Source: an uncultured Candidatus Saccharibacteria bacterium (lineage in GTDB: Bacteria > Patescibacteriota > Minisyncoccia > Portnoybacterales > UBA2143). Taken from it: a stretch of 64,000 nucleotides of DNA. Positions 14,156-64,000 of the stretch are shown piece by piece (positions within the stretch are counted from its first letter, which is position 1; the number at the start of each line of letters is the position of its first letter). The notes beneath the pieces are model-generated. The model did not search any database and had not been told where the DNA came from. It worked only from the letters and a program-made list of their open reading frames with translations. A program made the position numbers and the translations under genes. The stretch spans positions 459 through 64,458 of the forward strand of contig CAYPQZ010000014.1 of NCBI GenBank assembly GCA_964413015.1, read 5' to 3'.

Positions 14156-14261
14156 ACAATTATCTTGTAATTTGTGTGAGTAATTTGTAATTAGGGATAA
14201 ATTTTTACTTTAATACTTTCTTCCTCGCGCTAACTACTAAATACTAACTACCAAATACTCA

Positions 14262-14283
14262 AATTTTTGCGTCAGCAAAAATT
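14262..14283 (-). terminator. hairpin downstream of the minus-strand tRNA (possible terminator)
   Basis: atttttgc-gtca-gcaaaaat perfect 8-bp stem. On the minus strand it is followed by a U-rich tract. Confidence 0.35.
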
Positions 14284-14449: not shown

Positions 14450-14842
14450 ATGAATCTCTCAATATACTTAACGGGGTTGGTTTTGACTACGTTTTTAGCC
14501 GGAGCCTGTTTAGGGGCGATTCTGATTTATTTCAATCCGAATATGTCAAATTTGCTTGTTTATATTCTTTTCTATTTAAGTTTGTTTATCAGTTCGGCAG
14601 GATTTTTCACCTTATTTGGCTTAGCGGGCAGGTGGTTTTCTCAAAAAAAAATTCTCCGCTCGCGCTCTTCAACCAGCCGGGCGGCGCACCAATTGGAAAC
14701 TTCTTTTCGCCAGGGTCTGCTTTTGGCGGTTATCTTGACCGGAGTTTTGATTTTACAGAGTCAAAGGTCATTAACTTGGTGGTGTCTGGTAATTTTAGTC
14801 GGCTTGTCAGGCCTAGTTGAATACTGGCTAGGTCGAAGATAA
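14450..14842 (+). CDS. hypothetical 4-TM membrane protein
   Basis: Four hydrophobic helices. No recognisable family. Confidence 0.5.
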   Translation: MNLSIYLTGLVLTTFLAGACLGAILIYFNPNMSNLLVYILFYLSLFISSAGFFTLFGLAGRWFSQKKILRSRSSTSRAAHQLETSFRQGLLLAVILTGVLILQSQRSLTWWCLVILVGLSGLVEYWLGRR

Positions 14843-14853
14843 TTTTAATAATT

Positions 14854-15864
14854 ATGCTTAATAAGCTAAAAGAAAATTTTGTAAATGAAATAAAAAAAGC
14901 CAATAATCTAGAAACGCTTGAAAATATTTACAAAAAGTATCTTGGTCGTAAAGGTGAGCTGACCAATATTTTGCGTTCTCTAAAAAGGTTGCCCGAAAAA
15001 GAACGCAAACAAAAAGGCCGGACGGCCAATCAGCTAAAACAAGAAATAGGGGATATTTTAAAACAAAAGAGATGCGAGATACCTGCCCGCAATGCTACGC
15101 ATAGTGTTGCAGGCGGGCGAGACGCGAAACACGAAATACGGAACGGTTGGCTTGACGTGAGCGCTCCGGGCGTTTCTTTGCCCGAAGGGCATTCCCATCC
15201 AATCAGTTTGGTTCAAAAAGAAGTGGAAGACATTTTCCAATCCATGGGGTTTTCAGTGATTGAAGGCCCAGAGGTTGAGACTGAATATTATAACTTTGAC
15301 GCTTTAAATATTCCCAAAAACCATCCAGCCCGGGATTTATGGGACACTTTTTGGCTCAAGGACGTTAATTTGCTGTTACGGACTCATACTTCGCCGATGC
15401 AGGCCCGTTATATGGAGAAACATCAACCGCCTTTGCGAATTATTGTCCCAGGCCGCTGTTTCCGTCATGAAGCAACTGATGCTTCACATGATGTTCAGTT
15501 CTACCAAGTAGAAGGTCTGATGGTCGGCCAGGATATTTCAGTGGTTCATTTTAAAGGAGTCATTGAAGGATTTTTAAAAAGATTTTTTCATCCGGATATT
15601 GAGATGCGTTTAAGGCCGGGCTATTTCCCGTTTACTGAACCCAGCTTTGAGATTGATGCCAGAAGGAAGGGGCAGAAATGGCTGGAGTTGATGGGGGCCG
15701 GTATGGTCCATCAGAATGTTTTTAAAGAAGCCGGCTATCCTTTAAGGAAATGGCAGGGTTTTGCTTTTGGCATGTGTCCAGATAGATTAGCCATGCTTAA
15801 ATACAAAATTGACGATATTCGATTGTTCTATTCAGGCGATTTAAGATTTTTAAAACAGTTTTAA
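14854..15864 (+). CDS. pheS: phenylalanyl-tRNA synthetase alpha subunit
   Basis: Class II motifs (FRHEATDASHDVQFYQVEGL, GAGMVHQNV). Contains an internal GC-rich repeat motif at 15082-15117. Confidence 0.9.
   Translation: MLNKLKENFVNEIKKANNLETLENIYKKYLGRKGELTNILRSLKRLPEKERKQKGRTANQLKQEIGDILKQKRCEIPARNATHSVAGGRDAKHEIRNGWLDVSAPGVSLPEGHSHPISLVQKEVEDIFQSMGFSVIEGPEVETEYYNFDALNIPKNHPARDLWDTFWLKDVNLLLRTHTSPMQARYMEKHQPPLRIIVPGRCFRHEATDASHDVQFYQVEGLMVGQDISVVHFKGVIEGFLKRFFHPDIEMRLRPGYFPFTEPSFEIDARRKGQKWLELMGAGMVHQNVFKEAGYPLRKWQGFAFGMCPDRLAMLKYKIDDIRLFYSGDLRFLKQF
15082..15117. repeat. CCTGCCCGCAATGC..CATAG..GCAGGCGGG motif, copy inside pheS CDS
   Basis: cctgcccgcaatgctacgcatagtgttgcaggcggg. Near-identical to the copy in the 16S leader (54049-54083) and the reverse-complement copy at 20378-20400. 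Confidence 0.6.
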
Positions 15865-16417: not shown

Positions 16418-20298
<3,881 letters not shown>

Positions 20299-20345
20299 CA
20301 AAAAATTTTGTAATTTTTAAATAATTTTTAATGTCTTAATGTTTA
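20299..20345. repeat. partial copy of the AT-rich aaaattttgtaatttttaa repeat
   Basis: gcaaaaaattttgtaatttttaaataatttttaatgtcttaatg resembles the 5' part of the 115-nt repeats at 51345 and 52149. Confidence 0.4.
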
Positions 20346-20377
20346 AAAATTAAGATTTATTTACCCGTTTGCTAAAG

Positions 20378-20400
20378 CTATGTTTTGCATTGCGGGCAGG
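20378..20400. repeat. reverse-complement copy of the CCTGCCCGCAATGC..CATAG motif
   Basis: ctatgttttgcattgcgggcagg, reverse complement cctgcccgcaatgcaaaacatag. Lies in the leader of the secE-nusG-rplK operon. Confidence 0.5.
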
Positions 20401-20437
20401 TAAAATCAAAAATTAGAAATTAAAATTGTTATTCGGA

Positions 20438-20466
20438 TTGACATATATTTAATTAAGATATACTAT
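20438..20466 (+). promoter_or_regulatory. sigma70-like promoter for secE-nusG-rplK
   Basis: TTGACA at 20438-20443 and TATACT/TACTAT about 15-17 nt downstream. Followed by the structured leader ggggtaattaatacccc / cccctaaggggg. Confidence 0.4.
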
Positions 20467-23080: not shown

Positions 23081-23166
23081 AATTTTGACAAGGGGAAACT
23101 GATAAGAACAGTTTTAAAATGACGCCCTTGTGCTCAAGGGACATCATTTTAAGGACTGTCCTTACC
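23081..23166. repeat. composite palindromic repeat (GATAAGAACAG..ATGACGCCCTTGTGCTCAAGGGACATCAT..TTAAGGACTGTCCTTA)
   Basis: ~66-nt near-perfect palindrome plus the upstream aaattttgacaaggggaaact segment shared with 34371-34400. Generates a spurious N-terminal extension of folD. Confidence 0.8.
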
Positions 23167-23169
23167 ACC

Positions 23170-23940
23170 ATGAAAATTATTGACGGCAAAAAGATAGCCG
23201 ATGAAATTTTAGAAGAGCTTAGAAAGGAAATTGAAATAAAAAAGCTTAAACCATGCTTGGCGGTTATTTTGATTAGCGATAATCCGGCTTCTCGTTTGTA
23301 TATTCAAAAAAAAGAAGCAGCGGCTGAGGAAATTGGAGTTGAGGTAAAAAAGCATTTTTTAGATGAGCAAATCTCCGAAAAAGAAGTTTTGGGAATAATT
23401 GACTCTTTGAATAAAGACAAACAAATTAATGGGATTTTAGTCCAGCTGCCTTTGCCAAAACATCTGGCAGTTGATAAAATTGTTCAAGCCATTAAACCAG
23501 TCAAAGATGTTGATGGATTTGTCAAAGACAGTCTTTGCAATTCTCCTTTTGTTTTGGCTATTAGCCGTGCATTGGCAGAAAGCGGCCAGGATCAGTCAGG
23601 GCGACGAACGGTTATTCTAGCTAATTCCAAGGTTTTAATTCAATCCTTGAAATTGCATTTAAATAGATTAAAATTTATTAAAGATACTAAAAAAGCCGAT
23701 ATTGTCATTAGCGCTTTAGGTCGCCCCCAATATATTAAGGGCTCAACGATTAAACCAGACGCTGTCTTGATTGACGGGGGAATTTCAAAGGCGGATAATA
23801 AAATAGTTGGGGATGTTGACCGGGAAAGCGTTCAAGAAAAAGCCAGCTGGCTAACGCCGGTACCGGGCGGATTAGGTCCGTTGACAGTGGCCTTTTTAAT
23901 GAAAAATTTAGTATGGCTTACCAACCAGTCATCGGTTTAG
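23170..23940 (+). CDS. folD: bifunctional methylenetetrahydrofolate dehydrogenase/cyclohydrolase
   Basis: MKIIDGKKIADEI..., NPASRLYIQKK, GGLGPLTVA. Start reassigned from 23119, where the upstream codons translate the repeat. Confidence 0.88.
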   Translation: MKIIDGKKIADEILEELRKEIEIKKLKPCLAVILISDNPASRLYIQKKEAAAEEIGVEVKKHFLDEQISEKEVLGIIDSLNKDKQINGILVQLPLPKHLAVDKIVQAIKPVKDVDGFVKDSLCNSPFVLAISRALAESGQDQSGRRTVILANSKVLIQSLKLHLNRLKFIKDTKKADIVISALGRPQYIKGSTIKPDAVLIDGGISKADNKIVGDVDRESVQEKASWLTPVPGGLGPLTVAFLMKNLVWLTNQSSV

Positions 23941-26541: not shown

Positions 26542-27585
26542 TTAACTTGCGTTTTTTAAGGCCAGAATAACCTTTTTCCTCCTTTTCTTCTCGTCGGAAG
26601 GAACGTCATCTTTTAACCGGGCGGCGGCTGTGCCTTTTCTTGGAGAATAAGCGGCTACGTAAGCCTGGCTAAAGCCGATTTCCCTGAATAAATCAACCGT
26701 TTTTCGGAACTGCTTTTTAGTCTCGCCCGGAAAGCCAACAATAATATCAGTGGATATTTTCGCCTCGGGTATGGCCCGACGGATTTTTTTTATCAAATTT
26801 TTATAATGCCCGACCGTATAGCCACGATTCATCTTTTTGAGGATTTGGTTATCGCCTGACTGAACCGGCAGATGAATTTCTTTGGAAATTTTATCGCCTT
26901 GGCCGATTGTTTTTATCAGTTCGTTTGACATATCCTTAGGGTGAGAAGTAAGGAATTTTATCTGGAAGTTTCCGGGTAGATTGTTGATTAATTTAAGCAA
27001 TACGGAGAAGCCAAGGACAGTCCTTAAATTTACGTCCTTAGAATAAGGACGTAAATTTAAGGACTGTCCTTGACGGCCTTGATAGCTATTCACATTTTGT
27101 CCTAAAAGAGTTATTTCTCTATATCCTTTTTTAATTAAAGTTTTCGCTTCCTTAATAATTTCATTAGCCGGTCGCGAGTATTCACGGCCGCGGGTATAGG
27201 GGACTACGCAATAGGAACAAAAATTATTGCAACCGGTCATAATGGGAAGCCAGGCATTTTTGGCTGATTGACGTTTGGGCTCCAATTCCAGATTAATAAT
27301 TGGCCAGATTTCATCAACTTGTTCCCGAAGCTGTTTTTTGTCCTTGAATAAAAGACAACCAGTTAAAACCAATTTGCTTTCTGGGTTTTGAAGACGGATT
27401 TTCTTTACTTGGCTGTAAACCCTGTTGACAGCTGACTGTCTGATCGAGCAAACGTTAATAACAACTAAATTAGCCGATTTAATTTGGTCGACTGATTGGT
27501 AGTTTTTTTTCTCTAATTGGGCGGCAATCTTTTCCGAATCTGATTTATTCATTTGACAACCGTAGGTGATAATATGGTATTTCAT
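26542..27585 (-). CDS. miaB: tRNA-2-methylthio-N6-dimethylallyladenosine synthase (radical SAM MTTase)
   Basis: MTTase N-domain (MKYHIITYGCQMN), radical SAM CNNFCSYC, TRAM. Start reassigned from 27669, which translates a repeat. Carries an in-frame 61-nt palindrome at 27012-27072. Confidence 0.88.
   Translation of the reverse strand: MKYHIITYGCQMNKSDSEKIAAQLEKKNYQSVDQIKSANLVVINVCSIRQSAVNRVYSQVKKIRLQNPESKLVLTGCLLFKDKKQLREQVDEIWPIINLELEPKRQSAKNAWLPIMTGCNNFCSYCVVPYTRGREYSRPANEIIKEAKTLIKKGYREITLLGQNVNSYQGRQGQSLNLRPYSKDVNLRTVLGFSVLLKLINNLPGNFQIKFLTSHPKDMSNELIKTIGQGDKISKEIHLPVQSGDNQILKKMNRGYTVGHYKNLIKKIRRAIPEAKISTDIIVGFPGETKKQFRKTVDLFREIGFSQAYVAAYSPRKGTAAARLKDDVPSDEKKRRKKVILALKNAS
27012..27072. 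repeat. perfect 61-nt palindrome (29-nt arms, 3-nt centre) of the GGACNGTCC family inserted in-frame in miaB
   Basis: caaggacagtccttaaatttacgtcctta-gaa-taaggacgtaaatttaaggactgtccttg. Encodes ~20 extra residues (LNLRPYSKDVNLRTVLGFSV) between conserved MiaB blocks. Confidence 0.85.
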
Positions 27586-27615: not shown

Positions 27616-27700
27616 TTTAAGGATTATCATACGATAAGAACAGTCCTTAAAATGATGTCCCTTGAGCACAAGGGCGTCATTTTAAGGACTGTTCTTATCT
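27616..27700. repeat. composite palindromic repeat (reverse orientation of the 23101 copy)
   Basis: aaatttaaggattatcat + gataagaacagtccttaaaatgatgtcccttgagcacaagggcgtcattttaaggactgttcttatc. Confidence 0.8.
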
Positions 27701-27931
27701 GTTTGTCTTATTAGTTACCCTTTGTTAAAATTTAAGAACTGCCTTTTCATTGATTTCATTTTGTATCTTAATTGAAAATGTTGTATAATACAAGCAATAT
27801 GCCCCGTAGAGAAACTTTGACTCTATTCGCCTGTGGCGAATAAGAATGCGGGGATATATAATTATAAGATAAACTAAAAAATATTGAGAATTTTGATATT
27901 TTGATTAAATGTCAAAGTTCTTCTACGGGGT

Positions 27932-34271: not shown

Positions 34272-34506
34272 AAATTTAAGGATTGTCATTGAGGATCATG
34301 TCCCTTTACAGAAGGCAAAGGGCGTGTCCGCCTATCCGCCTCTGAAGGGAAAGGACGACTCCTTAAATTTTGACAAGGGGAAACAGATAAGACAAACTGA
34401 TAAGAACAGTCTTTAAAATGACGCCCTTGTGCTCAAGGGGCATCGTTTTAAGGACTGTCCTTATCATCAGCGTATCCCAAGGGACATCATTTTAAGGACT
34501 GCCTTT
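34262..34506. repeat. ~245-nt cluster of nested palindromic repeats (GGACNGTCC family, two composite copies)
   Basis: aaatttaaggattgtcatt; ccctttacagaaggcaaaggg; gataagaacagtctttaaaatgacgcccttgtgctcaaggggcatcgttttaaggactgtccttatc (34399-34465); plus a further partial copy. Confidence 0.8.
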
Positions 34507-39046: not shown

Positions 39047-39090
39047 GAATTGTCCTTAAAGAAATTTAAGGATTGTCATTTTAAGGACTG
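39047..39090. repeat. GGACNGTCC-family palindromic repeat
   Basis: gaattgtccttaaagaaatttaaggattgtcattttaaggactgtccttta. Confidence 0.7.
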
Positions 39091-39109
39091 TCCTTTAATC
39101 GGCAATAAA

Positions 39110-50837: not shown

Positions 50838-50906
50838 TAGCCCGTATTTTGTAGCTTGTATTTCGTACGAATCAAATACTAAATACTAAATACTAAATAC
50901 TAAACA

Positions 50907-51344
50907 ATGGCTAATCGTCATTTATCTCGTTCCGTTGCCATGCAGTCTCTTTATGAGTGGGATTTCAAAGGGAAAAACCCTGGTCAGTTAAAAGAAATCG
51001 TTAAACGGTCAATTAAAGAGTTTGCTCCAGGCCTGGAAGAAACCGATTTTGTCTGGCAAATAATTGACGGAGTGATTAAAAATTTACCCAAACTGGATAA
51101 GATCATTGAAAAATCGGCTCCAGAGTGGCCTCTTGAACAGATTACTGTCGTTGACCGTAATGTTTTAAGAATTGGGTTATACGAACTGCTTTTTGGCAGC
51201 CGGAACGAAGTTCCTCCAAAAGTGGCTATTAACGAGGCGATTGAATTAGCTAAAACCTTCGGCGGCGAATCTTCAGGCAAATTTATTAACGGGGTTTTAG
51301 GAACTGTTTACCGGGAAATTGGAGAACCCGGAAAAGACGAGTAA
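50907..51344 (+). CDS. nusB: transcription antitermination factor NusB
   Basis: [17 protein letters not shown]..., all-helical NusB fold length. Confidence 0.85.
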
Positions 51345-51461
51345 AATTTTGTAATTTTTAATTTTATGATTTTGTAAATAAATCTTAATTTCTAAGTTTT
51401 AAAAATTAAATCATTAAAAATTATTTAAAAATTAAAAATTGGAAATTAAAAATTTCCTCTT
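51345..51461. repeat. ~115-nt AT-rich direct repeat, copy 1 (5' of rnc)
   Basis: aaattttgtaatttttaattttatgattttgtaaataaatcttaatttctaag...aaaaattggaaattaaaaat. ~96% identical to 52149-52266. Confidence 0.85.
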
Positions 51462-52148: not shown

Positions 52149-52266
52149 GAAAATTTTGTAATTTTTAATTTTATAATTTTGTAAATGAATCTTAATTTCT
52201 AATTTTTAAAAATTAAATCATTAAAAATTATTTAAAAATTAAAAATTGGAAATTAAAAATTAAGCT
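52149..52266. repeat. ~115-nt AT-rich direct repeat, copy 2 (5' of rpsP)
   Basis: Near-identical to copy 1; differs at ~5 positions and in the last ~15 nt. Confidence 0.85.
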
Positions 52267-53996: not shown

Positions 53997-54048
53997 AAAG
54001 AAGCTCTTTGATAATTTAATAAGCAATTGCAATTTTGTGCAGTTGTCC

Positions 54049-54083
54049 CAGCCCGCAATGCTTCGCATAGCGATGCAGGCGGG
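54049..54083. repeat. CCCGCAATGC..CATAG..GCAGGCGGG motif copy in the 16S leader
   Basis: cagcccgcaatgcttcgcatagcgatgcaggcggg. Confidence 0.6.
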
Positions 54084-54094
54084 CCAAATTAGTT

Positions 54095-56566
<2,472 letters not shown>

Positions 56567-56629
56567 CTATATATTTTTTGACAGGAACAGGTTTCTGTTG
56601 TCTGCTAAATATATGGGGTGTTGATACAG

Positions 56630-56657
56630 GTTGAGATATGAGAATTCTTATCTCAAC
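56630..56657. repeat. inverted repeat GTTGAGATA-N10-TATCTCAAC (candidate recombinase core site)
   Basis: gttgagatatgagaattcttatctcaac, 65 nt after the 16S 3' end and 40 nt before the first integrase ORF. Confidence 0.5.
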
Positions 56658-56695
56658 TAGTAGGTGTTGGCCGAAAAGCCTTAAATATCGGCCAT

Positions 56696-57730
56696 ATGGG
56701 ACAACTACACAAGATTTGCAATTTGACTAAAGAACCTTGTTTAATACAGACAGGGTTTTTTAGTTTTATGAATACACAACAATTACTATATAAGAAAGCA
56801 CCACGATCCATTGACATTTTTAATAGAAATACAAAGAAAGCACCACGATCTAGTAACAATTTAGCTATTTCAAGTATAATTCCTGAGTTTTTAATCTACG
56901 CTAAATTTGAAAAAAGATTTGCCAATGAGTCCATAATTAAATACCAAGACTGTTTTAGGGGTTTTATAAGAGAAGTTGGAGATGTTTTTTTAAGTGATTT
57001 AAATACAGAGCATTTTAGTCAATTAAAGCAGAATCTTTTTAGCCGGGGGATTAGTGAAGCAAGGGTAGCTAGTGTTATTTTCTCAATGAAGAGTTTATTA
57101 AATTATTGTAAAGAGGTTAAGCATTTAAAAGTAATTAGTTCTAGGAAAATAAGATCTCCAAGACGGCCCAGGAGGGAGGTTATTTTTTTAAGTAATGAAG
57201 AAATTAGAAAATTTATAAAAGTAATAGATATAAAATCAACTTATGGATTAAGATTCAGAACATTAGTTGAAGTTCTTCTTGGTACTGGAATGAGAATATC
57301 AGAAGCATTATCTTTAGATCGTGATTCAATTGATTATGCAAAACGAGAAGTTAAAATTATCGGTAAAGGGAATAAAGAAAGGATTGTGTTTTTTAATAAT
57401 AGATCTCTAGAGTGGATTAGAAAGTATCTATCCGAGAGATGGGATGCTGAACAACCTATATTTATAACGCATGGAAACAATAGACGATTAAGTCGTAGTG
57501 GCGTTATGAGAGATTTTAAGAGATACAGGGATAAAGCCGGTATTAAAAAGAAAGTTAGTCCTCATATACTTCGTCATACTGTAGCTACAAATCTACTTTT
57601 TAATGGTTGTCCAATTTCGCATGTAAAAGAAATTCTTGGCCATACGCGCTTAGAAACAACTTGTAAATATTATTTAGGATTAGATAAGCGAAAAGCCAAA
57701 CAAGCACATAATAAGTTTCTACAATATTGA
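56696..57730 (+). CDS. tyrosine site-specific recombinase (phage integrase family), copy 1
   Basis: Core-binding SAM-like N-domain. Catalytic R (RISEALSL), H-x-x-R (HILRHT), and LGH...TT.KYY with the Tyr nucleophile. Alternative start at 56768. Confidence 0.85.
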   Translation: MGQLHKICNLTKEPCLIQTGFFSFMNTQQLLYKKAPRSIDIFNRNTKKAPRSSNNLAISSIIPEFLIYAKFEKRFANESIIKYQDCFRGFIREVGDVFLSDLNTEHFSQLKQNLFSRGISEARVASVIFSMKSLLNYCKEVKHLKVISSRKIRSPRRPRREVIFLSNEEIRKFIKVIDIKSTYGLRFRTLVEVLLGTGMRISEALSLDRDSIDYAKREVKIIGKGNKERIVFFNNRSLEWIRKYLSERWDAEQPIFITHGNNRRLSRSGVMRDFKRYRDKAGIKKKVSPHILRHTVATNLLFNGCPISHVKEILGHTRLETTCKYYLGLDKRKAKQAHNKFLQY

Positions 57731-57772
57731 TAGAAATAAAATCAAAAGTATCTTTTTCGTAGGTATATAGGG

Positions 57773-57801
57773 TTGACAATCTTTAAAAAGAAATGATAAT
57801 A
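57773..57801 (+). promoter_or_regulatory. sigma70-like promoter
   Basis: TTGACA-16/17 nt-GATAAT immediately upstream of the 57809 ORF. Confidence 0.4.
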
Positions 57802-57808
57802 TGTCAAT

Positions 57809-58234
57809 ATGAAAGATAAAAGGAATAATCTGATTATTAGAAAATCTGATTATAAAAGGAATAAAGGAGCCTTTATCTGGGAAGGTAAAAAAGAAGATTA
57901 TACAGAGCTTAAGGAAACAAGAAAATGGAGATGTCTCAAGTGCCACCGAATACTTGCAAATAATGTAGAGAATGATATAATTACGGTTAAAGGAGAAGGA
58001 AGACAAGAAATTAAGATCAGATTTAAAGCAATACGATGTATTTGCCCAGGTTCAAAAAGAAAAGGAACTGAAGGATGTAATACTGATAACAGACTTGTCT
58101 CTTATGTAGATCTCCTGTCGGAAAAATACGAACCGATTCAACTCGTTAAAACTGATTTAAAAATACAAAAAGAAATCGAAGAAAGTAGAAATAAAAATAT
58201 TCAGAATAAGATAGAAGAATTGAGTAATTTGTAA
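57809..58234 (+). CDS. hypothetical Cys-rich (zinc-ribbon-like) protein between the two recombinase genes
   Basis: CLKCH..., CICPGS..., GC spacing suggests a Zn ribbon. No family assignment. Confidence 0.45.
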   Translation: MKDKRNNLIIRKSDYKRNKGAFIWEGKKEDYTELKETRKWRCLKCHRILANNVENDIITVKGEGRQEIKIRFKAIRCICPGSKRKGTEGCNTDNRLVSYVDLLSEKYEPIQLVKTDLKIQKEIEESRNKNIQNKIEELSNL

Positions 58235-58316
58235 TTAACAAGATGGTCAGGTTAGGAGGATGCTATATGTACCCTCTTAAAAAAATCTAGTATTTGGCTA
58301 GTTGTAAAACGTGTTA

Positions 58317-58352
58317 TTAATCCCGTGCATAATTTTATGTGCGGGATTTTTA
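58317..58352 (+). terminator. hairpin plus T-run (terminator)
   Basis: atcccgtgcat-aatttt-atgtgcgggat (11-bp stem with two G-U pairs) followed by ttttaatt. Confidence 0.45.
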
Positions 58353-58355
58353 ATT

Positions 58356-59288
58356 ATGAAGATAAGAGAATTACTAAAAGTAATAAAAGAGGGAACAAAA
58401 GGAAAGAAATACCTTATTAGTATTTTAATACCTGATTTTATAGACTGGCTTTCCCTGGATTTAAATTTGGCTCCTCAAACATTAGAGAAGCATAAGGAAT
58501 GTCTCGATCATGTTATTCGTTATATTGGAGATTTAGACATAAGAGAGATGACATCTGTTGATGTTTTAAATATAAAAAAAGAGATGAATAAAAAGAAATT
58601 AAGCCCAGCACGTATTAATAGTATTATTTTTGCACTACGAAAATTATTAAGATTTTGCGATTCTGTTTTAAATATTAAGGTCCTTGATCCAGCTAAAATG
58701 ATTCCATTAAAAATCAAACAAAAGCAGGTTGTATATTTAACTAATAAAGAAATCGATATATTTAGAAAAGCAATTAATACATCAACAAGATACGGGAAGC
58801 GTTTTAGAGCCTTGTTTGAAACTTTGCTTAGTTCGGGTTTACGCATAAGCGAAGCTTTGTCTTTAGATCGTGATTCAATTAATTACGAAAAGAAAGAGGC
58901 TAATATTGTTGGTAAAGGAGGAAGACCTAGGACTGTTTATTTCAATGATGATGCAATAACTCGAATCAATATTTATTTAGAAACTAGATGGGACGATGAA
59001 CCAGCACTTTTTGTTACTCATGGTGGTGAACCAACTAGATTAAAAAGAGGAAGCGTTGAGCAAGAATTTAGTAGGTATAGGAAATTTGTAAATATAAAGA
59101 AAAAAGTTACTGCCCATACTCTAAGACATTCGTTCTGCACAAATTTACATCATCATGGACTTGATATCCTATGGATTAAAGAATTAGCCGGGCATAGAGA
59201 TATTCAAACTACAGCTAAATATTACATTGGTACAAGCAAAAAGAAAATCAAAGAAGCCCACCGTAAATATTTGAATTTTAATAATTAA
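58356..59288 (+). CDS. tyrosine site-specific recombinase, copy 2 (paralog of 56696)
   Basis: Same architecture and motifs (LRISEALSLDRDSI, HTLRHSF, LAGH...TTAKYY); ~45% identity to copy 1 by eye. Start moved from 58311. Confidence 0.85.
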   Translation: MKIRELLKVIKEGTKGKKYLISILIPDFIDWLSLDLNLAPQTLEKHKECLDHVIRYIGDLDIREMTSVDVLNIKKEMNKKKLSPARINSIIFALRKLLRFCDSVLNIKVLDPAKMIPLKIKQKQVVYLTNKEIDIFRKAINTSTRYGKRFRALFETLLSSGLRISEALSLDRDSINYEKKEANIVGKGGRPRTVYFNDDAITRINIYLETRWDDEPALFVTHGGEPTRLKRGSVEQEFSRYRKFVNIKKKVTAHTLRHSFCTNLHHHGLDILWIKELAGHRDIQTTAKYYIGTSKKKIKEAHRKYLNFNN

Positions 59289-59326
59289 TTAATAAGTTAA
59301 TTTTCGTTTAAGGAGTCAGACATAAC

Positions 59327-60850
59327 TTGAAAAAGTTAGTTACTTATAACGGTAGCATGTCTGGCTTCCTAAATGGGAATAGCTACCGTTATATGAATAA
59401 AGAATTAGGAACATTTAATGAGATAATAGAAGAAGCAAAGAAGAATAAAACATTTAATACGGGGTCAATAGTACCTAATGAAAGCGAAGTAGAAGAAATG
59501 GAAAGAGATGATGAATATTCAAGAGAAGAAAAGAAAAAGAAAATCATAAAAGCTAAAGCAAAAATTAAAGATAATATTAAGCAGAAAAAGAAAGTGCAAA
59601 AATTACTTTTAAATCCAAGGTTACTTTATAACATAAAAAGTCAATTTGAGAAATTAGGGATTGCTGGAGAAACTAGAAATTCTTTAATGATTTATTTGGC
59701 TCTAACAAGTCGAATGATGGACAAACCAATAAGTATAGTTAATAAAGGTGATTCTTCTTCCGGTAAATCTTATATGATTAATTTGATTCTAAGGCTTTTT
59801 CCTAAAAACGCTTATATTGAAATGACTGCCGCAACTGCTCAAAGCTTTTATCATGCTGGAAAGGATGATTTTAAACATAAGATTATTATTATTTATGAGA
59901 GAAAGGGCTCAGAGAATAGCGATTATTCAATTCGTTCTTTTCAATCCGAAGGAAATTTAAAGCTTCAAATTACAGTGAAGAATAAAAAAACAGGCAATTT
60001 CGAAGTTAAACGCAAAGAGGTACTCGGGCCAGTTGGCTTTTTAACAACTACTACTGATCCACACATTCATGATGAAAATGAAACCAGGGTTTTTAGCCTA
60101 TACACCAATGAGAGTGTAATACAAACGGCAAGAATATTTAAAGCAAGTAGTGCGGGATATAAAGGAATTAATCCAATTAGTAATCTCAGATTAAAGAAAT
60201 TTAAAAAACTCCAGCGATTATTAAAAACATATAAGATTTCAATTCCTTATGTGGACGACCTAATAAGCGTTTTCCCTCATAAACCAGTTAGAGTTAGAAG
60301 AGATTTTCCAAGATTTCTTACTTTAATATCGGTTGTTACTTTACTACACCAACATCAAAGAGAAAAAAAAATTATTAAAAAAGAAGAATATTTAGTGTCA
60401 AGTCTAGCTGATTATTATATCGCCAAGATTATCGCTGAAAGAATGTTAAAGCAAACTATTTTTGAGATAGCTCCAAAGACAAAACAAGTTATTAAAGTCG
60501 CCAAAAAGATTATTAATTTAAAAATTAAAAAGCAAACCCTAAATGCTAAGAGTGGGATAAGTGTAATGGCCGGGCTAAATCCAACCTTTAATATTACAGA
60601 ATTAGCCAGAAAGATTGGATGGGAGTATAAAACAACTTACAAATGGTTCAAACCAGCGTTAGAGAAAGGTTATTTTACCATAGAAGAAGAACAGAGAGGT
60701 AGACAAGCTGCAACGTATAAAATCAATAAAATGAAAAATAATCAAATAATATTGCCAGAGGTTAATAATATGATTAAGAAATATCCGCTTAATAAAGAAA
60801 GAATCTATAATCCAATTACAGGAGAATACTTGGATTTAGGTAAAAAGTGA
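59327..60850 (+). CDS. P-loop NTPase, putative plasmid/phage replication (primase-helicase/D5-like) protein
   Basis: Walker A KGDSSSGKSY, and a Walker B-like IIIIYER. Size and context fit replication proteins of mobile elements. Family is uncertain. Confidence 0.5.
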   Translation: MKKLVTYNGSMSGFLNGNSYRYMNKELGTFNEIIEEAKKNKTFNTGSIVPNESEVEEMERDDEYSREEKKKKIIKAKAKIKDNIKQKKKVQKLLLNPRLLYNIKSQFEKLGIAGETRNSLMIYLALTSRMMDKPISIVNKGDSSSGKSYMINLILRLFPKNAYIEMTAATAQSFYHAGKDDFKHKIIIIYERKGSENSDYSIRSFQSEGNLKLQITVKNKKTGNFEVKRKEVLGPVGFLTTTTDPHIHDENETRVFSLYTNESVIQTARIFKASSAGYKGINPISNLRLKKFKKLQRLLKTYKISIPYVDDLISVFPHKPVRVRRDFPRFLTLISVVTLLHQHQREKKIIKKEEYLVSSLADYYIAKIIAERMLKQTIFEIAPKTKQVIKVAKKIINLKIKKQTLNAKSGISVMAGLNPTFNITELARKIGWEYKTTYKWFKPALEKGYFTIEEEQRGRQAATYKINKMKNNQIILPEVNNMIKKYPLNKERIYNPITGEYLDLGKK

Positions 60851-61261
60851 TGAGGTTCTTGTAGGTATGTTTTATGGATACGGAATAACCAACTTGCACT
60901 TTTATAAGAAAATAAACTTAATATTTTGTTACTACACTTCTATAAGAATGAACAAGAGAATATTAGTTTAATGGCTCTATTAATCAATTAAAAATAAAAA
61001 AAGTGGAAGTAGAGATTTCTATATTTACAAAAACATATCCATAAAGCTTTTGTATTGTACGTAGAAGCGTAGTAACAAATAAAAATATGGATAATTCTAA
61101 TATTATATGAAAAAAAAGAAGCAAAAAGAAAAAGAATCTTTAAGAATTAAGAGATTAAAAGCTAAAAATAGAAGAGACATTGGATATTCAATGGTTGATT
61201 TACTTCCTTTAAGCTTGAGTATTAGTAAAAAATTGAATAAGAAATAGTTTTATATTAATCC

Positions 61262-61810
61262 ATGAATAACAAATCTGTCAGAAATCGTCAGAAAATAACA
61301 CCAAAACAAATAGATTACTGGACGGAACCAAAACGGCAACTTTTTGAAATGGTTCTTGAAAGTTCTTTAAAGCGTCATGAGATGGCCAAGGAACTTAATA
61401 TAAGTACTAGAACGGTTCAAAGATGGATTAAGGATCCTTCGTTCCATGAGGCCTTAAGCATGAGCTCTGATGCTTGGAAAATGCAGATTACAGCACGGCG
61501 CTTAGATCTTATTAAAGAGCTTATAAAAGGATTAAGAAAAAGAATGGAAATATCAATAAATCAGGTATCTCCAGAAGTTTTACTAACAGAATATAGAAAG
61601 CTTTTATTTGATATCCCATTGAGAATATCTTCGGTTGCTATTCAACAAAATGTTTTCCCTAAAAAAATAACATCGCTTCCATGTTTATCTCCTAAAAAAA
61701 TAAAAATTGTAGAAAAAGCTGTTTTAAAATCACAGGGATATAACGAATTAAATGTCTCAAAAGAAGATATAGAAGCTGTTAGGAAAGAAAATGCATTAAA
61801 TAAACAGTAG
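61262..61810 (+). CDS. HTH-domain protein (terminase small subunit-like or regulator)
   Basis: AKELNISTRTVQRWIKDP helix-turn-helix near the N-terminus. Confidence 0.5.
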   Translation: MNNKSVRNRQKITPKQIDYWTEPKRQLFEMVLESSLKRHEMAKELNISTRTVQRWIKDPSFHEALSMSSDAWKMQITARRLDLIKELIKGLRKRMEISINQVSPEVLLTEYRKLLFDIPLRISSVAIQQNVFPKKITSLPCLSPKKIKIVEKAVLKSQGYNELNVSKEDIEAVRKENALNKQ

Positions 61811-61860
61811 TGTAAGCGCAAGAAAAGATTCTTTTTCTTAAAAATTAATAAGAGAAAAAT

Positions 61861-61896
61861 AAAAAAAGACCGACAGGGTATTAGCCCATCGGCCTT
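61861..61896 (-). terminator. rho-independent terminator (minus strand; weakly bidirectional)
   Basis: On the minus strand: ggccgaugggcuaauacccugucgguc followed by U7, just after the stop of the 61913-62278 gene. Confidence 0.55.
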
Positions 61897-61912
61897 TCTT
61901 GCTTCTCAGCGA

Positions 61913-62278
61913 CTAGAAGGGGAGATCTTCAATTTTTTCTATAACAGGAATTTCTCCAATTTCGTCAATCTGTTTTGTGAAATTACATCCAGGATAGGTA
62001 ATACATCCAAGGAAAGGACCATTTTTACCACGCCTTAATACCATTGGAGCTCCACATTTTTCGCAAAGCTGTTCTTCTTTGTTTTTCTTTTTATCATTAT
62101 TTGCTGTCATATTGCCATTAAATACTTTCTTTAAATCTTTGTATAGCTTATCGGCTTCTTGAACTGAATCTGCGCGAATATTTATCATTAGCGATTTTCT
62201 AATCACCTTCCCATCTGGTTTTTTATCAATTGTCTCATTTATCTGAATTCGATTAAAATCATGATTAATTGTAGCCAT
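61913..62278 (-). CDS. small protein with topoisomerase-type C4 zinc finger
   Basis: CEKCGAPMVLRRGKNGPFLGCITYPGC matches the zf-C4_Topoisom pattern. Confidence 0.55.
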   Translation of the reverse strand: MATINHDFNRIQINETIDKKPDGKVIRKSLMINIRADSVQEADKLYKDLKKVFNGNMTANNDKKKNKEEQLCEKCGAPMVLRRGKNGPFLGCITYPGCNFTKQIDEIGEIPVIEKIEDLPF

Positions 62279-62375
62279 AATTTTTATTAGAATAAATTAA
62301 TTGATTATTTCTAATTAAGCTGTTCGACTTTTTAGAATTGTAAATTCTAACAGCTTACAAGATAAAAGCGTAATC

Positions 62376-62768
62376 TTACTTTTCTTTTTCAATCAGCTTT
62401 AGCATTTTCATTGATAGCCATTTTCTTTTGTTAAAGATAATATGATCGTAAAGTTCAATATCTAGGATCTCGCCAGCTTTCTTTAATCTTTGCGTGACTT
62501 CTATATCATCCTGCGATGGTTCAAGATCACTGCTTGGATGATTGTGCAGTACAATTATCATCTTTGCTGAATTCATCACTGCTGGTTTAAATGTTTCTCT
62601 TGGATGGACGAGACAAGCATTGAGAGTTCCTAAACTAATCAATTCTGCTTTTGTAATCTTTGTTCGTGAGTCAAAATAGATTCCAATAAAATGCTCTTTA
62701 TACCAATCGGTTATTAATGTTCTAGCTATTCTTACTGATTCAATTGGATGATCAATAATTTTAGCCAT
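62376..62768 (-). CDS. RadC-like JAB/MPN domain protein
   Basis: JAMM-like motif HNHPS..EPS..D in a 130-aa protein; typical of RadC in mobile elements. Confidence 0.72.
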   Translation of the reverse strand: MAKIIDHPIESVRIARTLITDWYKEHFIGIYFDSRTKITKAELISLGTLNACLVHPRETFKPAVMNSAKMIIVLHNHPSSDLEPSQDDIEVTQRLKKAGEILDIELYDHIIFNKRKWLSMKMLKLIEKEK

Positions 62769-62794
62769 AATATTTTCCTTTCTCCCTTGCGGGA

Positions 62795-62980
62795 TTAGTA
62801 TTCTATATCAATCGCAAAATTGTGATTGTTGACCTTATCACATGCATCTTCCCAAAGCTTGAACCATTCCTGATTTGTCTTTGGTTTTTCTCTTTTTTCT
62901 TCTTCAAGGATTGAGTCCATGGTTTCAACAATAATCTTATTCTTTGTTTCCGAATCAAGGTCATGAAAGTAAATTTTCAT
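62795..62980 (-). CDS. hypothetical small protein
   Basis: 61-aa ORF in operon-like arrangement with the RadC gene. Confidence 0.3.
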   Translation of the reverse strand: MKIYFHDLDSETKNKIIVETMDSILEEEKREKPKTNQEWFKLWEDACDKVNNHNFAIDIEY

Positions 62981-63051
62981 TTTTTTTCACCTCCCTTCTT
63001 TTATTTGCCAGGTATCGACCTACCCGGCTTTAATTAATTTATCGACTTTTT

Positions 63052-63258
63052 TTAGCTAACGCAGTGAACGTTTCTTTCAATATCTTTTCTATCTAGTTCT
63101 ACTAATGAAGGATGTTTCATTAATTTTTCAACCGCATCCTTTTTGTCATCAGCTTTTATCTCAATTTCAAAGTCTGAAGCTGCGCAATGGCTTTTTAAAA
63201 AACAGGCATAAATCTTTTGCCTGCTTTTTGATCTCTTAGTCATATTTATCATCACCAC
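63052..63258 (-). CDS. hypothetical small protein
   Basis: 68-aa ORF. No family. Confidence 0.3.
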   Translation of the reverse strand: MVMINMTKRSKSRQKIYACFLKSHCAASDFEIEIKADDKKDAVEKLMKHPSLVELDRKDIERNVHCVS

Positions 63259-64000
63259 CTTTCTTGGTTATTTAGGAAATACTCTAGCTAAAAGAATTTC
63301 ATTCAATATATTTACTTCGCTCAAACCATTTCCAAATTACTCCCAAGACCCCGCGTTTTGCTTAAGCGATAACAACGCTGTATCAATAGCCAAGCTTTCG
63401 TCTGGAAATTTGAGTAGTAAAATTTATTAAGGAACTGGATTTTAATATTATTTAAAAAAGCAAAAACAGGGATATGTTTAAAGTTGGACTTTAAAATCCT
63501 TAAATAATAATTTTCTGGTCCACGCTAAGAAGATAATATCTAAATCTTTTAGTGGATTTTAATTTAGAAAACATATTTTGAGGGACTCAAAATTGTTGCT
63601 AAATTAAAAAAGAAAATTATTATTTAACTCAAAGGAATAAAACTTTAAACATATTTCAGTTTTTGCTATAATTTTTTATTAAAATCAGTTTCTTATTTAA
63701 ATTTCTACTCAAATTTTACAGATGAAAGCGTATGGCTTTACAGTGTTGTTATGTTTAAGCAAGACGCTTTGGATGTAATTTGGAATATATGGTTTCGAAG
63801 TAAATATATTAATGAAAAATTGATAGAGTATTGGTTTTGATTGAAGTAAATAAGGATGCAATAAAAAAAAATAGAGATTACTCTCTATTTTTTAATATCC
63901 ATTCCCCCCAGAGGTTATTTTTCAGAGATATTTAATTAGTACTCTGTGCGAAAAATTTCTGTTTTTGTTAAAATTTCAGGCCTAACTCTTGAAATTATTA

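Follow-up and report, generated by a model that had tools for sequence, protein, structure and literature searches.

Why should a gene for a tRNA synthetase carry a short GC-rich palindrome that recurs elsewhere in the same DNA? The question is raised by pheS, which encodes the alpha subunit of phenylalanine-tRNA ligase (336 aa, identified by Pfam domains and orthologues) at positions 14854-15864 of the plus strand of a 64,000-nt stretch from an uncultured Candidatus Saccharibacteria bacterium (contig CAYPQZ010000014.1). We refer to this whole stretch as the window. It belongs to a low-GC genome (~0.40) of the Patescibacteria, or candidate phyla radiation (CPR). A preliminary description had reported one copy of the palindrome in pheS, one upstream of the 16S rRNA gene and half a copy near secE, and had offered two readings, mosaic repeat-derived sequence or a regulatory or processing motif shared by translation-apparatus transcripts. 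Our analysis favors the first. With a probability of about 0.78, the sequence is a selfish, selection-filtered palindromic insertion element similar to the repetitive extragenic palindromes (REPs) and the Rickettsia palindromic elements (RPEs). It appears to represent an undescribed family of this kind.

The palindromic insertion in pheS

A search of the window sequence located the 32-mer CCCGCAATGCTACGCATAGTGTTGCAGGCGGG at 15086-15117, in frame and GC-rich as initially described (GC 0.64 vs. ~0.41 locally). A head of four bases 5' of the 32-mer, CCTG in pheS and CCAG in the 16S leader, completes 36-nt units at 15082-15117 and 54048-54083. The unit in pheS (copy 1) is an intact element on the plus strand, made up of the CCTG head and an imperfect hairpin, and scores 61.4 bits with a covariance model of the family. 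Its predicted fold has an energy of -22 kcal/mol (z = -3.5). The element lies in the sense strand in codon phase 0, starts with codon 77, and encodes PARNATHSVAGG, residues 77-88 of PheS, within the peptide stretch CEIPARNATHSVAGGRDAK that spans the insertion.

Comparison with other PheS proteins identified these residues as an addition. Orthologues are mostly 323-327 residues long, compared with 336 for the window protein, and the extra peptide lies in the region that joins the N-terminal helical domain (Pfam residues 17-76) to the catalytic core (residues 100-336). In a 22-sequence alignment, 18 of the 21 orthologues had no residues opposite PARNATHSVAGG; in this linker, P0021 and P0035 carry additional residues of unrelated sequence, and P0055 carries a few. 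The earlier suggestion that residues ~75-100 are lineage-specific was thus correct for residues 77-88, and the remainder of that range is not lineage-specific in the alignment.

The closest orthologue (locus L001, protein 80% identical) provides an empty site. Its DNA shows a single clean 36-nt gap that coincides exactly with CCTGCCCGCAATGCTACGCATAGTGTTGCAGGCGGG, with alignable sequence on both flanks and no target-site duplication. An assembly error can be discounted, because the identical 336-residue PheS is encoded on 10 contigs from several assemblies. Judged from these alignments, the pheS copy is an exact in-frame 36-nt insertion, and the proposal of repeat-derived sequence inside pheS is borne out. 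In an AlphaFold model, the insertion lies in a low-pLDDT (predicted local distance difference test) coil, residues 79-112, between a confident helical hairpin and the core. The structural argument for a flexible linker is weak, because the model is mediocre (mean pLDDT 65.6).

The segment directly downstream, CGAGACGCGAAACACGAAATACGGAAC (15118-15144, plus strand), is not part of the element. It aligns with CAAAATACAAGATACGAGATACGAGAC in L001, and since this diverged form is present in a relative without the insertion, the gaaacacgaaatacg segment belongs to the older, ancestral linker. The same segment is the source of the 15-mer recurrence at 993-1007 that had been proposed as a further repeat. 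This recurrence is weak: at least two matches to the 15-mer were found in 3 of 100 shuffles (p ~0.03). By eye, the linker 3' of the insertion has a loose 7-nt periodicity in the window and in L001 alike. Tandem arrays of the heptamers CTAAATA and AAATACT (4-5 copies) and GAAAYAC-like runs are found in intergenic spacers (14230-14264, 50874-50904; 945-1010). Repeats of the (GAAATAC)n type were considered as a cause of the 15-mer recurrence and rejected; they were seen by eye only, and Tandem Repeats Finder makes no call on the pheS segment.

Two further observations concern inserts of other sequence. The PheS orthologues P0055 and P0065 have different, repeat-like in-frame inserts (…KAKQSR…IAASPSAPRND) at another site (alignment columns ~186-211), and a Mur ligase at locus L043 contains the repeat-like in-frame inserts VIARSEVSPRADEATRQSH and …LRRNDKK. 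The sequences suggest that CPR genomes may contain several families of coding-compatible palindromic inserts.

Anatomy and distribution of the family

In order to find relatives of the element, we scanned one genome per prokaryotic species with an exact-arm pattern, CCCGCAATGC-N(9-17)-GCAGGCGGG. At least 120 stretches matched, and about 105 of the matches listed are true copies. These share a preceding CCTG head and an ATA loop and fall into two main size classes of 36 and 39 nt, counted with the head. Their flanks are unrelated. Further copies with point mutations were recovered with the covariance model. The preliminary description had regarded an absence of further copies, together with conservation of the pheS segment among relatives, as a sign of coincidence. 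Instead, more copies exist and the segment is absent from most of the aligned orthologues, so that a repeat is favored on both counts. Some 15-20 of the matches, from high-GC Alphaproteobacteria and similar genomes, have neither the head nor the inner hairpin and look like chance matches. For the remainder, chance resemblance, low complexity or assembly artefact is already refuted: the pair of 32-mers in the window had no match in 100 dinucleotide-preserving shuffles, the ~105 copies share a conserved head and loop and a covarying stem, and the same PheS protein recurs on contigs from independent assemblies.

The unit is 36 or 39 nt long in total and consists of an unpaired, conserved 4-nt head, CCTG (rarely CCAG, TCTG or CCTA), followed by an imperfect hairpin. 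From the base upward, the hairpin comprises a 5-bp stem (CCCGC/GCGGG), an AA/G internal loop, 3 bp (UGC/GCA), a U/U mismatch, a variable apical stem of 4 or 5 bp, and an AUA loop. The arms are invariant by construction of the scan and thus provide no structural evidence alone. The apical stem does. In the 36-nt class, 12 distinct sequences have AU at pair 16:26, 10 have UA and 3 have GC; in the 39-nt class double changes occur at three apical pairs, with a score that 0 of 500 shuffles attained. In both classes, the observed covariation was reached by 0 or 1 of 500 shuffles and collapsed in slid controls. A plain near-perfect palindrome, the 15-bp minimum-free-energy fold of copy 1, was rejected as the family structure; unlike the offset hairpin, it gave no covariation signal. 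Copies found with the covariance model mostly differ by single point mutations in the arms, with one compensated change from U-A to C-G in the middle stem. G-U pairs are confined to the plus strand, which indicates that the structure belongs to one strand, as RNA or single-stranded DNA. Four of the six reading frames of the element are open. The preferred frame encodes P-A-R-N-A-(S/T)-H-S-(D/V)-A-G-G, or a 13-residue variant in the 39-nt class, a hydrophilic, loop-like peptide that starts with proline and ends with Gly-Gly.

The carriers are phylogenetically diverse. According to record titles, the Patescibacteria among them are Nomura-, Giovannoni-, Staskawicz-, Falkow-, Magasanik-, Moran-, Davies-, Levy-, Roizman-, Woese-, Shapiro- and Berkelbacteria, Kazan and Saccharibacteria. 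Copies were also found in Verrucomicrobia, Kiritimatiellia and Lentisphaerae, where the contigs reach 546 kb and have a GC content of 0.54-0.60, and in low-GC bins titled Gammaproteobacteria or Bdellovibrionales and one titled Woesearchaeota. Near-identical 36-mers occur across several phyla. Among IMG/VR viral contigs, the element was present in 14 stretches, with at least five copies on one 33.5-kb contig. The viral copies inspected lie between phage structural genes, and by eye the open reading frames (ORFs) of these contigs look like ordinary tailed-phage structural and packaging genes. The presence in phage contigs suggests a possible route between phyla. Searches of PLSDB plasmids and GenBank phages did not find the element.

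Most units are singlets, with occasional direct clusters and decay by point mutation. At one Saccharibacteria locus (L011; CAYJQS010000014.1, 676-5047), a ribosomal-protein cluster contains four sense in-frame copies in a 4-kb span; judged by eye, two are close to the N-termini of S9 and S11, and one each is within RpoA and IF-1. At locus L112 (CAZRJL010000052.1, ~1950-2445), 36-nt units stand head to tail without spacers in uvrA (…HNVAGGPARNATHNVAGGPARNATHNVAGG…), beside an assembly N run, and an additional diverged copy lies ~1 kb away in the same gene. In the high-GC genomes, different loci share extended flanks (L039 and L068 of Verrucomicrobia JAHIJO01; L019 and L107 of Lentisphaerae MHBK01). 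In one example, GGACACGA[element]CGGAGCGTGTCC, the flanks are themselves inverted repeats, and the element is nested in a larger repeated palindrome.

The 36-nt length, the hairpin and the clustered or tandem copies at L073, L092, L083 and L112 are reminiscent of CRISPR repeats, and one might ask whether the copies are solitary remnants, such as orphan CRISPR repeats, attC-type sites, or ends of a larger insertion sequence (IS). This is very improbable. Regular repeat-spacer arrays were not found; spacings are irregular (62, 101, 126, 203 and 236 nt) or zero, as in the uvrA tandem. Most loci have a single copy in a gene, the unrelated flanks speak against any larger conserved unit, and the inspected loci have no transposase adjacent to a copy.

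In order to compare genic and intergenic copies, we restricted the census to low-GC loci, where naive ORF calling is usable, and to ORFs of at least 90 codons. Of 78 copies, 45 were genic, and all 45 had a length of 36 or 39 nt, a multiple of three. Lengths divisible by three were seen in only 21 of the 33 intergenic copies, the other 12 having other lengths (Fisher p = 8e-6). Genic copies were also strongly oriented: 36 of 45 were in sense phase 0, six in other sense phases (e.g., LPAMLRIALQAG) and three antisense. Relative to their neighboring genes, intergenic copies were co-directional in 17 cases, anti-directional in 12 and mixed in 9. This lack of bias indicates that insertion, or persistence outside genes, is not oriented. 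It also led us to reject strand-specific insertion of the IS200/IS605 type, on the lagging-strand template, as the cause of the sense bias in genes. The contrast between the two groups argues against an RNA-level function tied to the direction of transcription, and the frame and length statistics suggest that the genic copies are translated.

The host proteins, about 20 different ones in all, have little in common. Pfam identified ten: ATP synthase gamma, UvrC, ribonucleotide reductase, MurD, GyrA, LepA, ValRS (a class I tRNA synthetase), MurE, ThiI and UvrA. RecG (twice), FtsK, IleRS and a family-39 glycosyltransferase were recognized by eye.

The strong bias for one strand and one phase in genes, the exclusive 3n length and the loop-like composition with proline first and Gly-Gly last would also be expected if the peptide were the unit of selection, that is, if a module of 12-13 residues, PARNA[ST]HS[DV]AGG, spread horizontally and the DNA palindrome were incidental. 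We consider this more improbable still than the remnant explanation. About 40% of the copies are intergenic or, in one case, in an rRNA leader, where no peptide is made. The nucleotide arms are conserved, yet the covarying apical stem alters residues (T/S, V/D, and SSIA in the 39-nt class), suggesting nucleotide conservation beyond what the peptide requires. In addition, other phases and antisense copies occur, and the sites are linkers and termini of unrelated proteins.

The copies in the pre-16S leader and the gyrB-secE spacer

An unfiltered covariance-model scan of the window identified three copies. Copy 2 (54048-54083, plus strand) is an intact 36-nt element with a CCAG head in the leader of the pre-16S rRNA and, like copy 1, scores 61.4 bits. 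Its 32-mer part, at 54052-54083, differs from CCCGCAATGCTACGCATAGTGTTGCAGGCGGG by 3 mismatches. Its position and its placement in the leader had been described correctly; the distance to the mature 16S start at 54095 is 11 nt rather than the ~15 nt given. RNAcofold predicts that the leader and trailer of the 16S rRNA form a 28-bp processing stem (28 intermolecular pairs) between 54022-54050, which overlaps the first three bases of copy 2, and 56697-56728, downstream of the 16S 3' end (~56567), both on the plus strand. The hairpin of copy 2 would lie immediately inside this stem, at a site where extra structure is thrown away with the leader during 16S maturation.

The 16S gene itself (54095 to ~56567) is interrupted. 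Its canonical sequence ends near 55466 (…CTTGTAC, followed by tcgggtgcc…) and resumes near 56429 (ATACCGCCCGTCA), with AAGTCGTAACAAGGCA at 56516. The insert of ~960 nt (55466-56428) contains an Rfam match to group-II-intron D1-D4 at 55787-55879. The Rfam span of the 16S rRNA (54095-55494, model positions 1-1533) is misleading because of this interruption. Past the rRNA region, the GC content of the window drops (~0.30 in 56000-64000 vs. ~0.40 elsewhere).

Copy 3 had been described as half-length and as part of the secE-nusG leader, and neither statement holds. It is a decayed but full-length copy of 37 nt, CCTGCCCGCAATGCAAAACATAGCTTTAGCAAACGGG, at 20364-20400 of the minus strand. The model scores it at 26.6 bits (E = 0.0015), and in comparison with a variant at locus L038, CCCGCAATGCAAAGCATAGCTTTGGCAGGCGGG, about four G residues have changed to A. 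It is intergenic, antisense to both gyrB and secE, and located upstream of the secE promoter within a composite insertion of 139 nt (20299-20437) that is absent from L001. The insertion follows the gyrB stop codon (20296-20298), extends up to the conserved secE promoter (TTGACA-17-TACTAT, 20438-20466), and is a mosaic of an AT-rich repeat (20307-20359) and copy 3. Together with pheS, this spacer provides filled and empty sites, relative to L001, at two of the three positions in the window.

Other repeats were noted in the same DNA. The AT-rich segment at 20307-20359, which is related to 51386-51438 and 52193-52245, matches in inverted orientation (85-87% complementarity) a direct repeat of 112 nt that occurs at 51343-51454 and 52150-52261 and constitutes another repeat family. 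A separate and more abundant palindromic family, AAGGACAGTCCTTAAA…TTTAAGGACTGTCCTT, was found at 23113-23170, 27012-27072, 27633-27736, 34362-34500 and 39064-39095, with arms of up to 104 nt and 90% complementarity; it is presumably the first of the repeat families in the preliminary description. A candidate fourth copy of the present element at 14619-14632 (minus strand, 2 mismatches) was discarded, as the right arm is missing and the covariance model gives no match there up to E = 10.

The position of copy 2 next to a processing stem, the stable hairpin, the covariation and G-U pairs that fit the plus strand only, and the many translation-related hosts (pheS, S9, S11, IF-1, LepA, IleRS and ValRS) could point to a cis-acting RNA motif that serves processing, stability or regulation of translation-apparatus transcripts, the second of the readings initially offered. 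Enrichment of translation genes is expected, because CPR genomes consist largely of such housekeeping genes. The element is also found in genes for DNA repair, replication, cell-wall synthesis, ATP synthase and surface proteins, and in structural modules of phages. Outside genes, the copies favor neither orientation, copy 3 runs antisense upstream of a promoter, and the closest relative does without the element in both pheS and the gyrB-secE spacer. A conserved feature of 16S leaders was rejected as well, since none of the ~120 loci has a 16S start near a copy. Rfam gave no match to the element in the window at the gathering score, and none around copy 2 up to E = 10. We therefore regard the RNA motif as largely refuted and as very unlikely to account for the family.

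Origin of the element and comparison with known systems

Copies of the element are added at sites of unrelated sequence. Flank logos and the comparison with L001 revealed no target-site duplication and no strong target motif, only a weak preference for A at -1 to -3 upstream of insertions. Selection would act after insertion and spare genic copies that keep the frame, so that the element could persist in essential genes of gene-dense genomes. In the window, the tolerated sites would be a flexible linker in PheS and a pre-16S leader, which rRNA maturation cuts away. No host function would be attached to the element. We imagine that an enzyme specific for its sequence moves it in trans, in the form of a single-stranded hairpin, and might read the conserved head and the lower stem, as REP-associated tyrosine transposases (RAYTs) do with GTAG-tagged REPs (PMC3733652), and that phages or other vectors may transfer it between phyla. 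An HUH/Y1 (RAYT-like) transposase would be an example of such an enzyme, although this assignment is tentative and, in our estimate, more probably wrong than right.

Several points weigh against the selfish-element interpretation. The head reads CCTG, whereas the described REP superfamilies carry GTAG or CGTC, and none of 150 covariance-model matches was an inverted dimer of the kind known from REPINs and bacterial interspersed mosaic elements (BIMEs). No IS200/IS605-type TnpA was detected by jackhmmer among the 4,734 ORFs of the loci (neighborhoods only, ~1 Mb) and the window; this is a weak negative, given the neighborhoods covered and an approximate IS608 TnpA sequence as the query. For REPs, which normally stay within one lineage, the occurrence of identical 36-mers across phyla would be unusual, although the uniformity across phyla is partly a matter of ascertainment because the scan demanded exact arms. 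Among the low-GC bins, some of the taxon labels "Gammaproteobacteria", "Bdellovibrionales" and "Woesearchaeota" may be mistaken. Copy numbers are those of the window (3 in 64 kb) and of individual loci (4 in 4 kb in L011), not of whole genomes, and translation of the insert is something we infer from the frame statistics.

A bolder version of the selfish-element interpretation is conceivable: an active DNA parasite that crosses phyla, is carried by phages, has a sequence shaped for life in essential genes of gene-dense genomes, and is moved by a hairpin-recognizing enzyme other than a classical RAYT. The length fixed at 36 or 39 nt, the four open frames out of six and the Pro-...-Gly-Gly loop peptide fit this version, which we nevertheless consider doubtful. 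If it were true, the element would be the first "coding-compatible" mini-transposon family common to Patescibacteria and the Planctomycetes-Verrucomicrobia-Chlamydiae (PVC) bacteria, and would mark recent gene flow between the two groups.

The element explains lineage-specific inserts of 12-13 residues in essential CPR proteins, including tRNA synthetases, ribosomal proteins, GyrA, UvrA and Mur ligases, that could otherwise be mistaken for adaptations or for noise in alignments. The finding of nearly the same 36-mer in Patescibacteria, PVC bacteria and phage contigs suggests recent DNA exchange or a common mobilizing activity in uncultured lineages, among which gene flow is hard to see by other means. 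The contrast between genic and intergenic copies amounts to a natural experiment on the insertion tolerance of essential proteins. The covariance model may serve as a probe, both for masking such inserts in phylogenomic alignments and for finding the mobilizing enzyme.

A literature search by sequence, by peptide and by the concept of such elements in CPR bacteria returned no record of the family, only general papers on REPs, RPEs and MITEs (miniature transposable elements with inverted repeats). Like MITEs and IS200/IS605 derivatives, the element is non-autonomous and presumably mobilized in trans. MITEs are 70-300 bp long and have terminal inverted repeats around a core and target-site duplications, none of which applies here. 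Insertion without target-site duplication and a hairpin as the likely recognition feature are shared with the IS200/IS605 derivatives. However, the present element is a single hairpin without distinct left and right ends, has no fixed target tetra- or pentanucleotide, and is unbiased in its intergenic orientation (17:12:9), in contrast to the replication-linked strand bias of these derivatives. It differs from CRISPR repeats in that copies are mostly single and that clusters are irregular or directly tandem. Mobile clusters that are short, GC-rich and palindromic are also known from AT-rich, compact mitochondrial genomes, as the GC clusters of yeast and the byp elements of Magnusiomyces, and include insertions in protein-coding and rRNA genes. 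Both are organellar. The byp elements are skipped by the ribosome and need not keep the frame, whereas the frame and length statistics of the present element indicate translation.

The likeness to REPs is closer. The element is an imperfect GC-rich palindrome in the size range of 20-40 nt with a conserved 4-nt tag at one end; it is dispersed, with unrelated flanks, occasional clusters, some genic copies and no coding capacity of its own. Intragenic copies are also on record for GTAG- and CGTC-tagged REPs, some of them in uvrA and in further genes of repair or replication (Di Nocera et al., 2013, PMC3733652). In contrast to REPs, the tag is CCTG, and neither end has GTAG/CTAC or CGTC/GACG. About half of the copies are genic rather than extragenic, and inverted dimers are missing. 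REP families usually keep to one lineage, whereas the present element recurs almost unchanged in several phyla and in phage contigs. No RAYT gene turned up near the element in the loci and the window with the approximate query.

Together with the intragenic REPs, RPEs are the nearest parallel described. In the accounts of Ogata et al. (2000) given in PMC10969869 and PMC3733652, they are found in frame in housekeeping genes, RPE-1 measuring ~100-150 bp. As far as these accounts go, both are selfish palindromes in frame in unrelated housekeeping genes of small, gene-dense genomes (45 of 45 genic copies here have a compatible length), and the RPE is translated as an extra surface peptide compatible with protein function. 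By the same accounts, RPEs are confined to Rickettsia, while the present element, of 36 or 39 nt and unrelated sequence, has hosts among Patescibacteria and PVC bacteria as well as other bins and phages. That both of its size classes are multiples of three sets it apart from REPs and RPEs alike.

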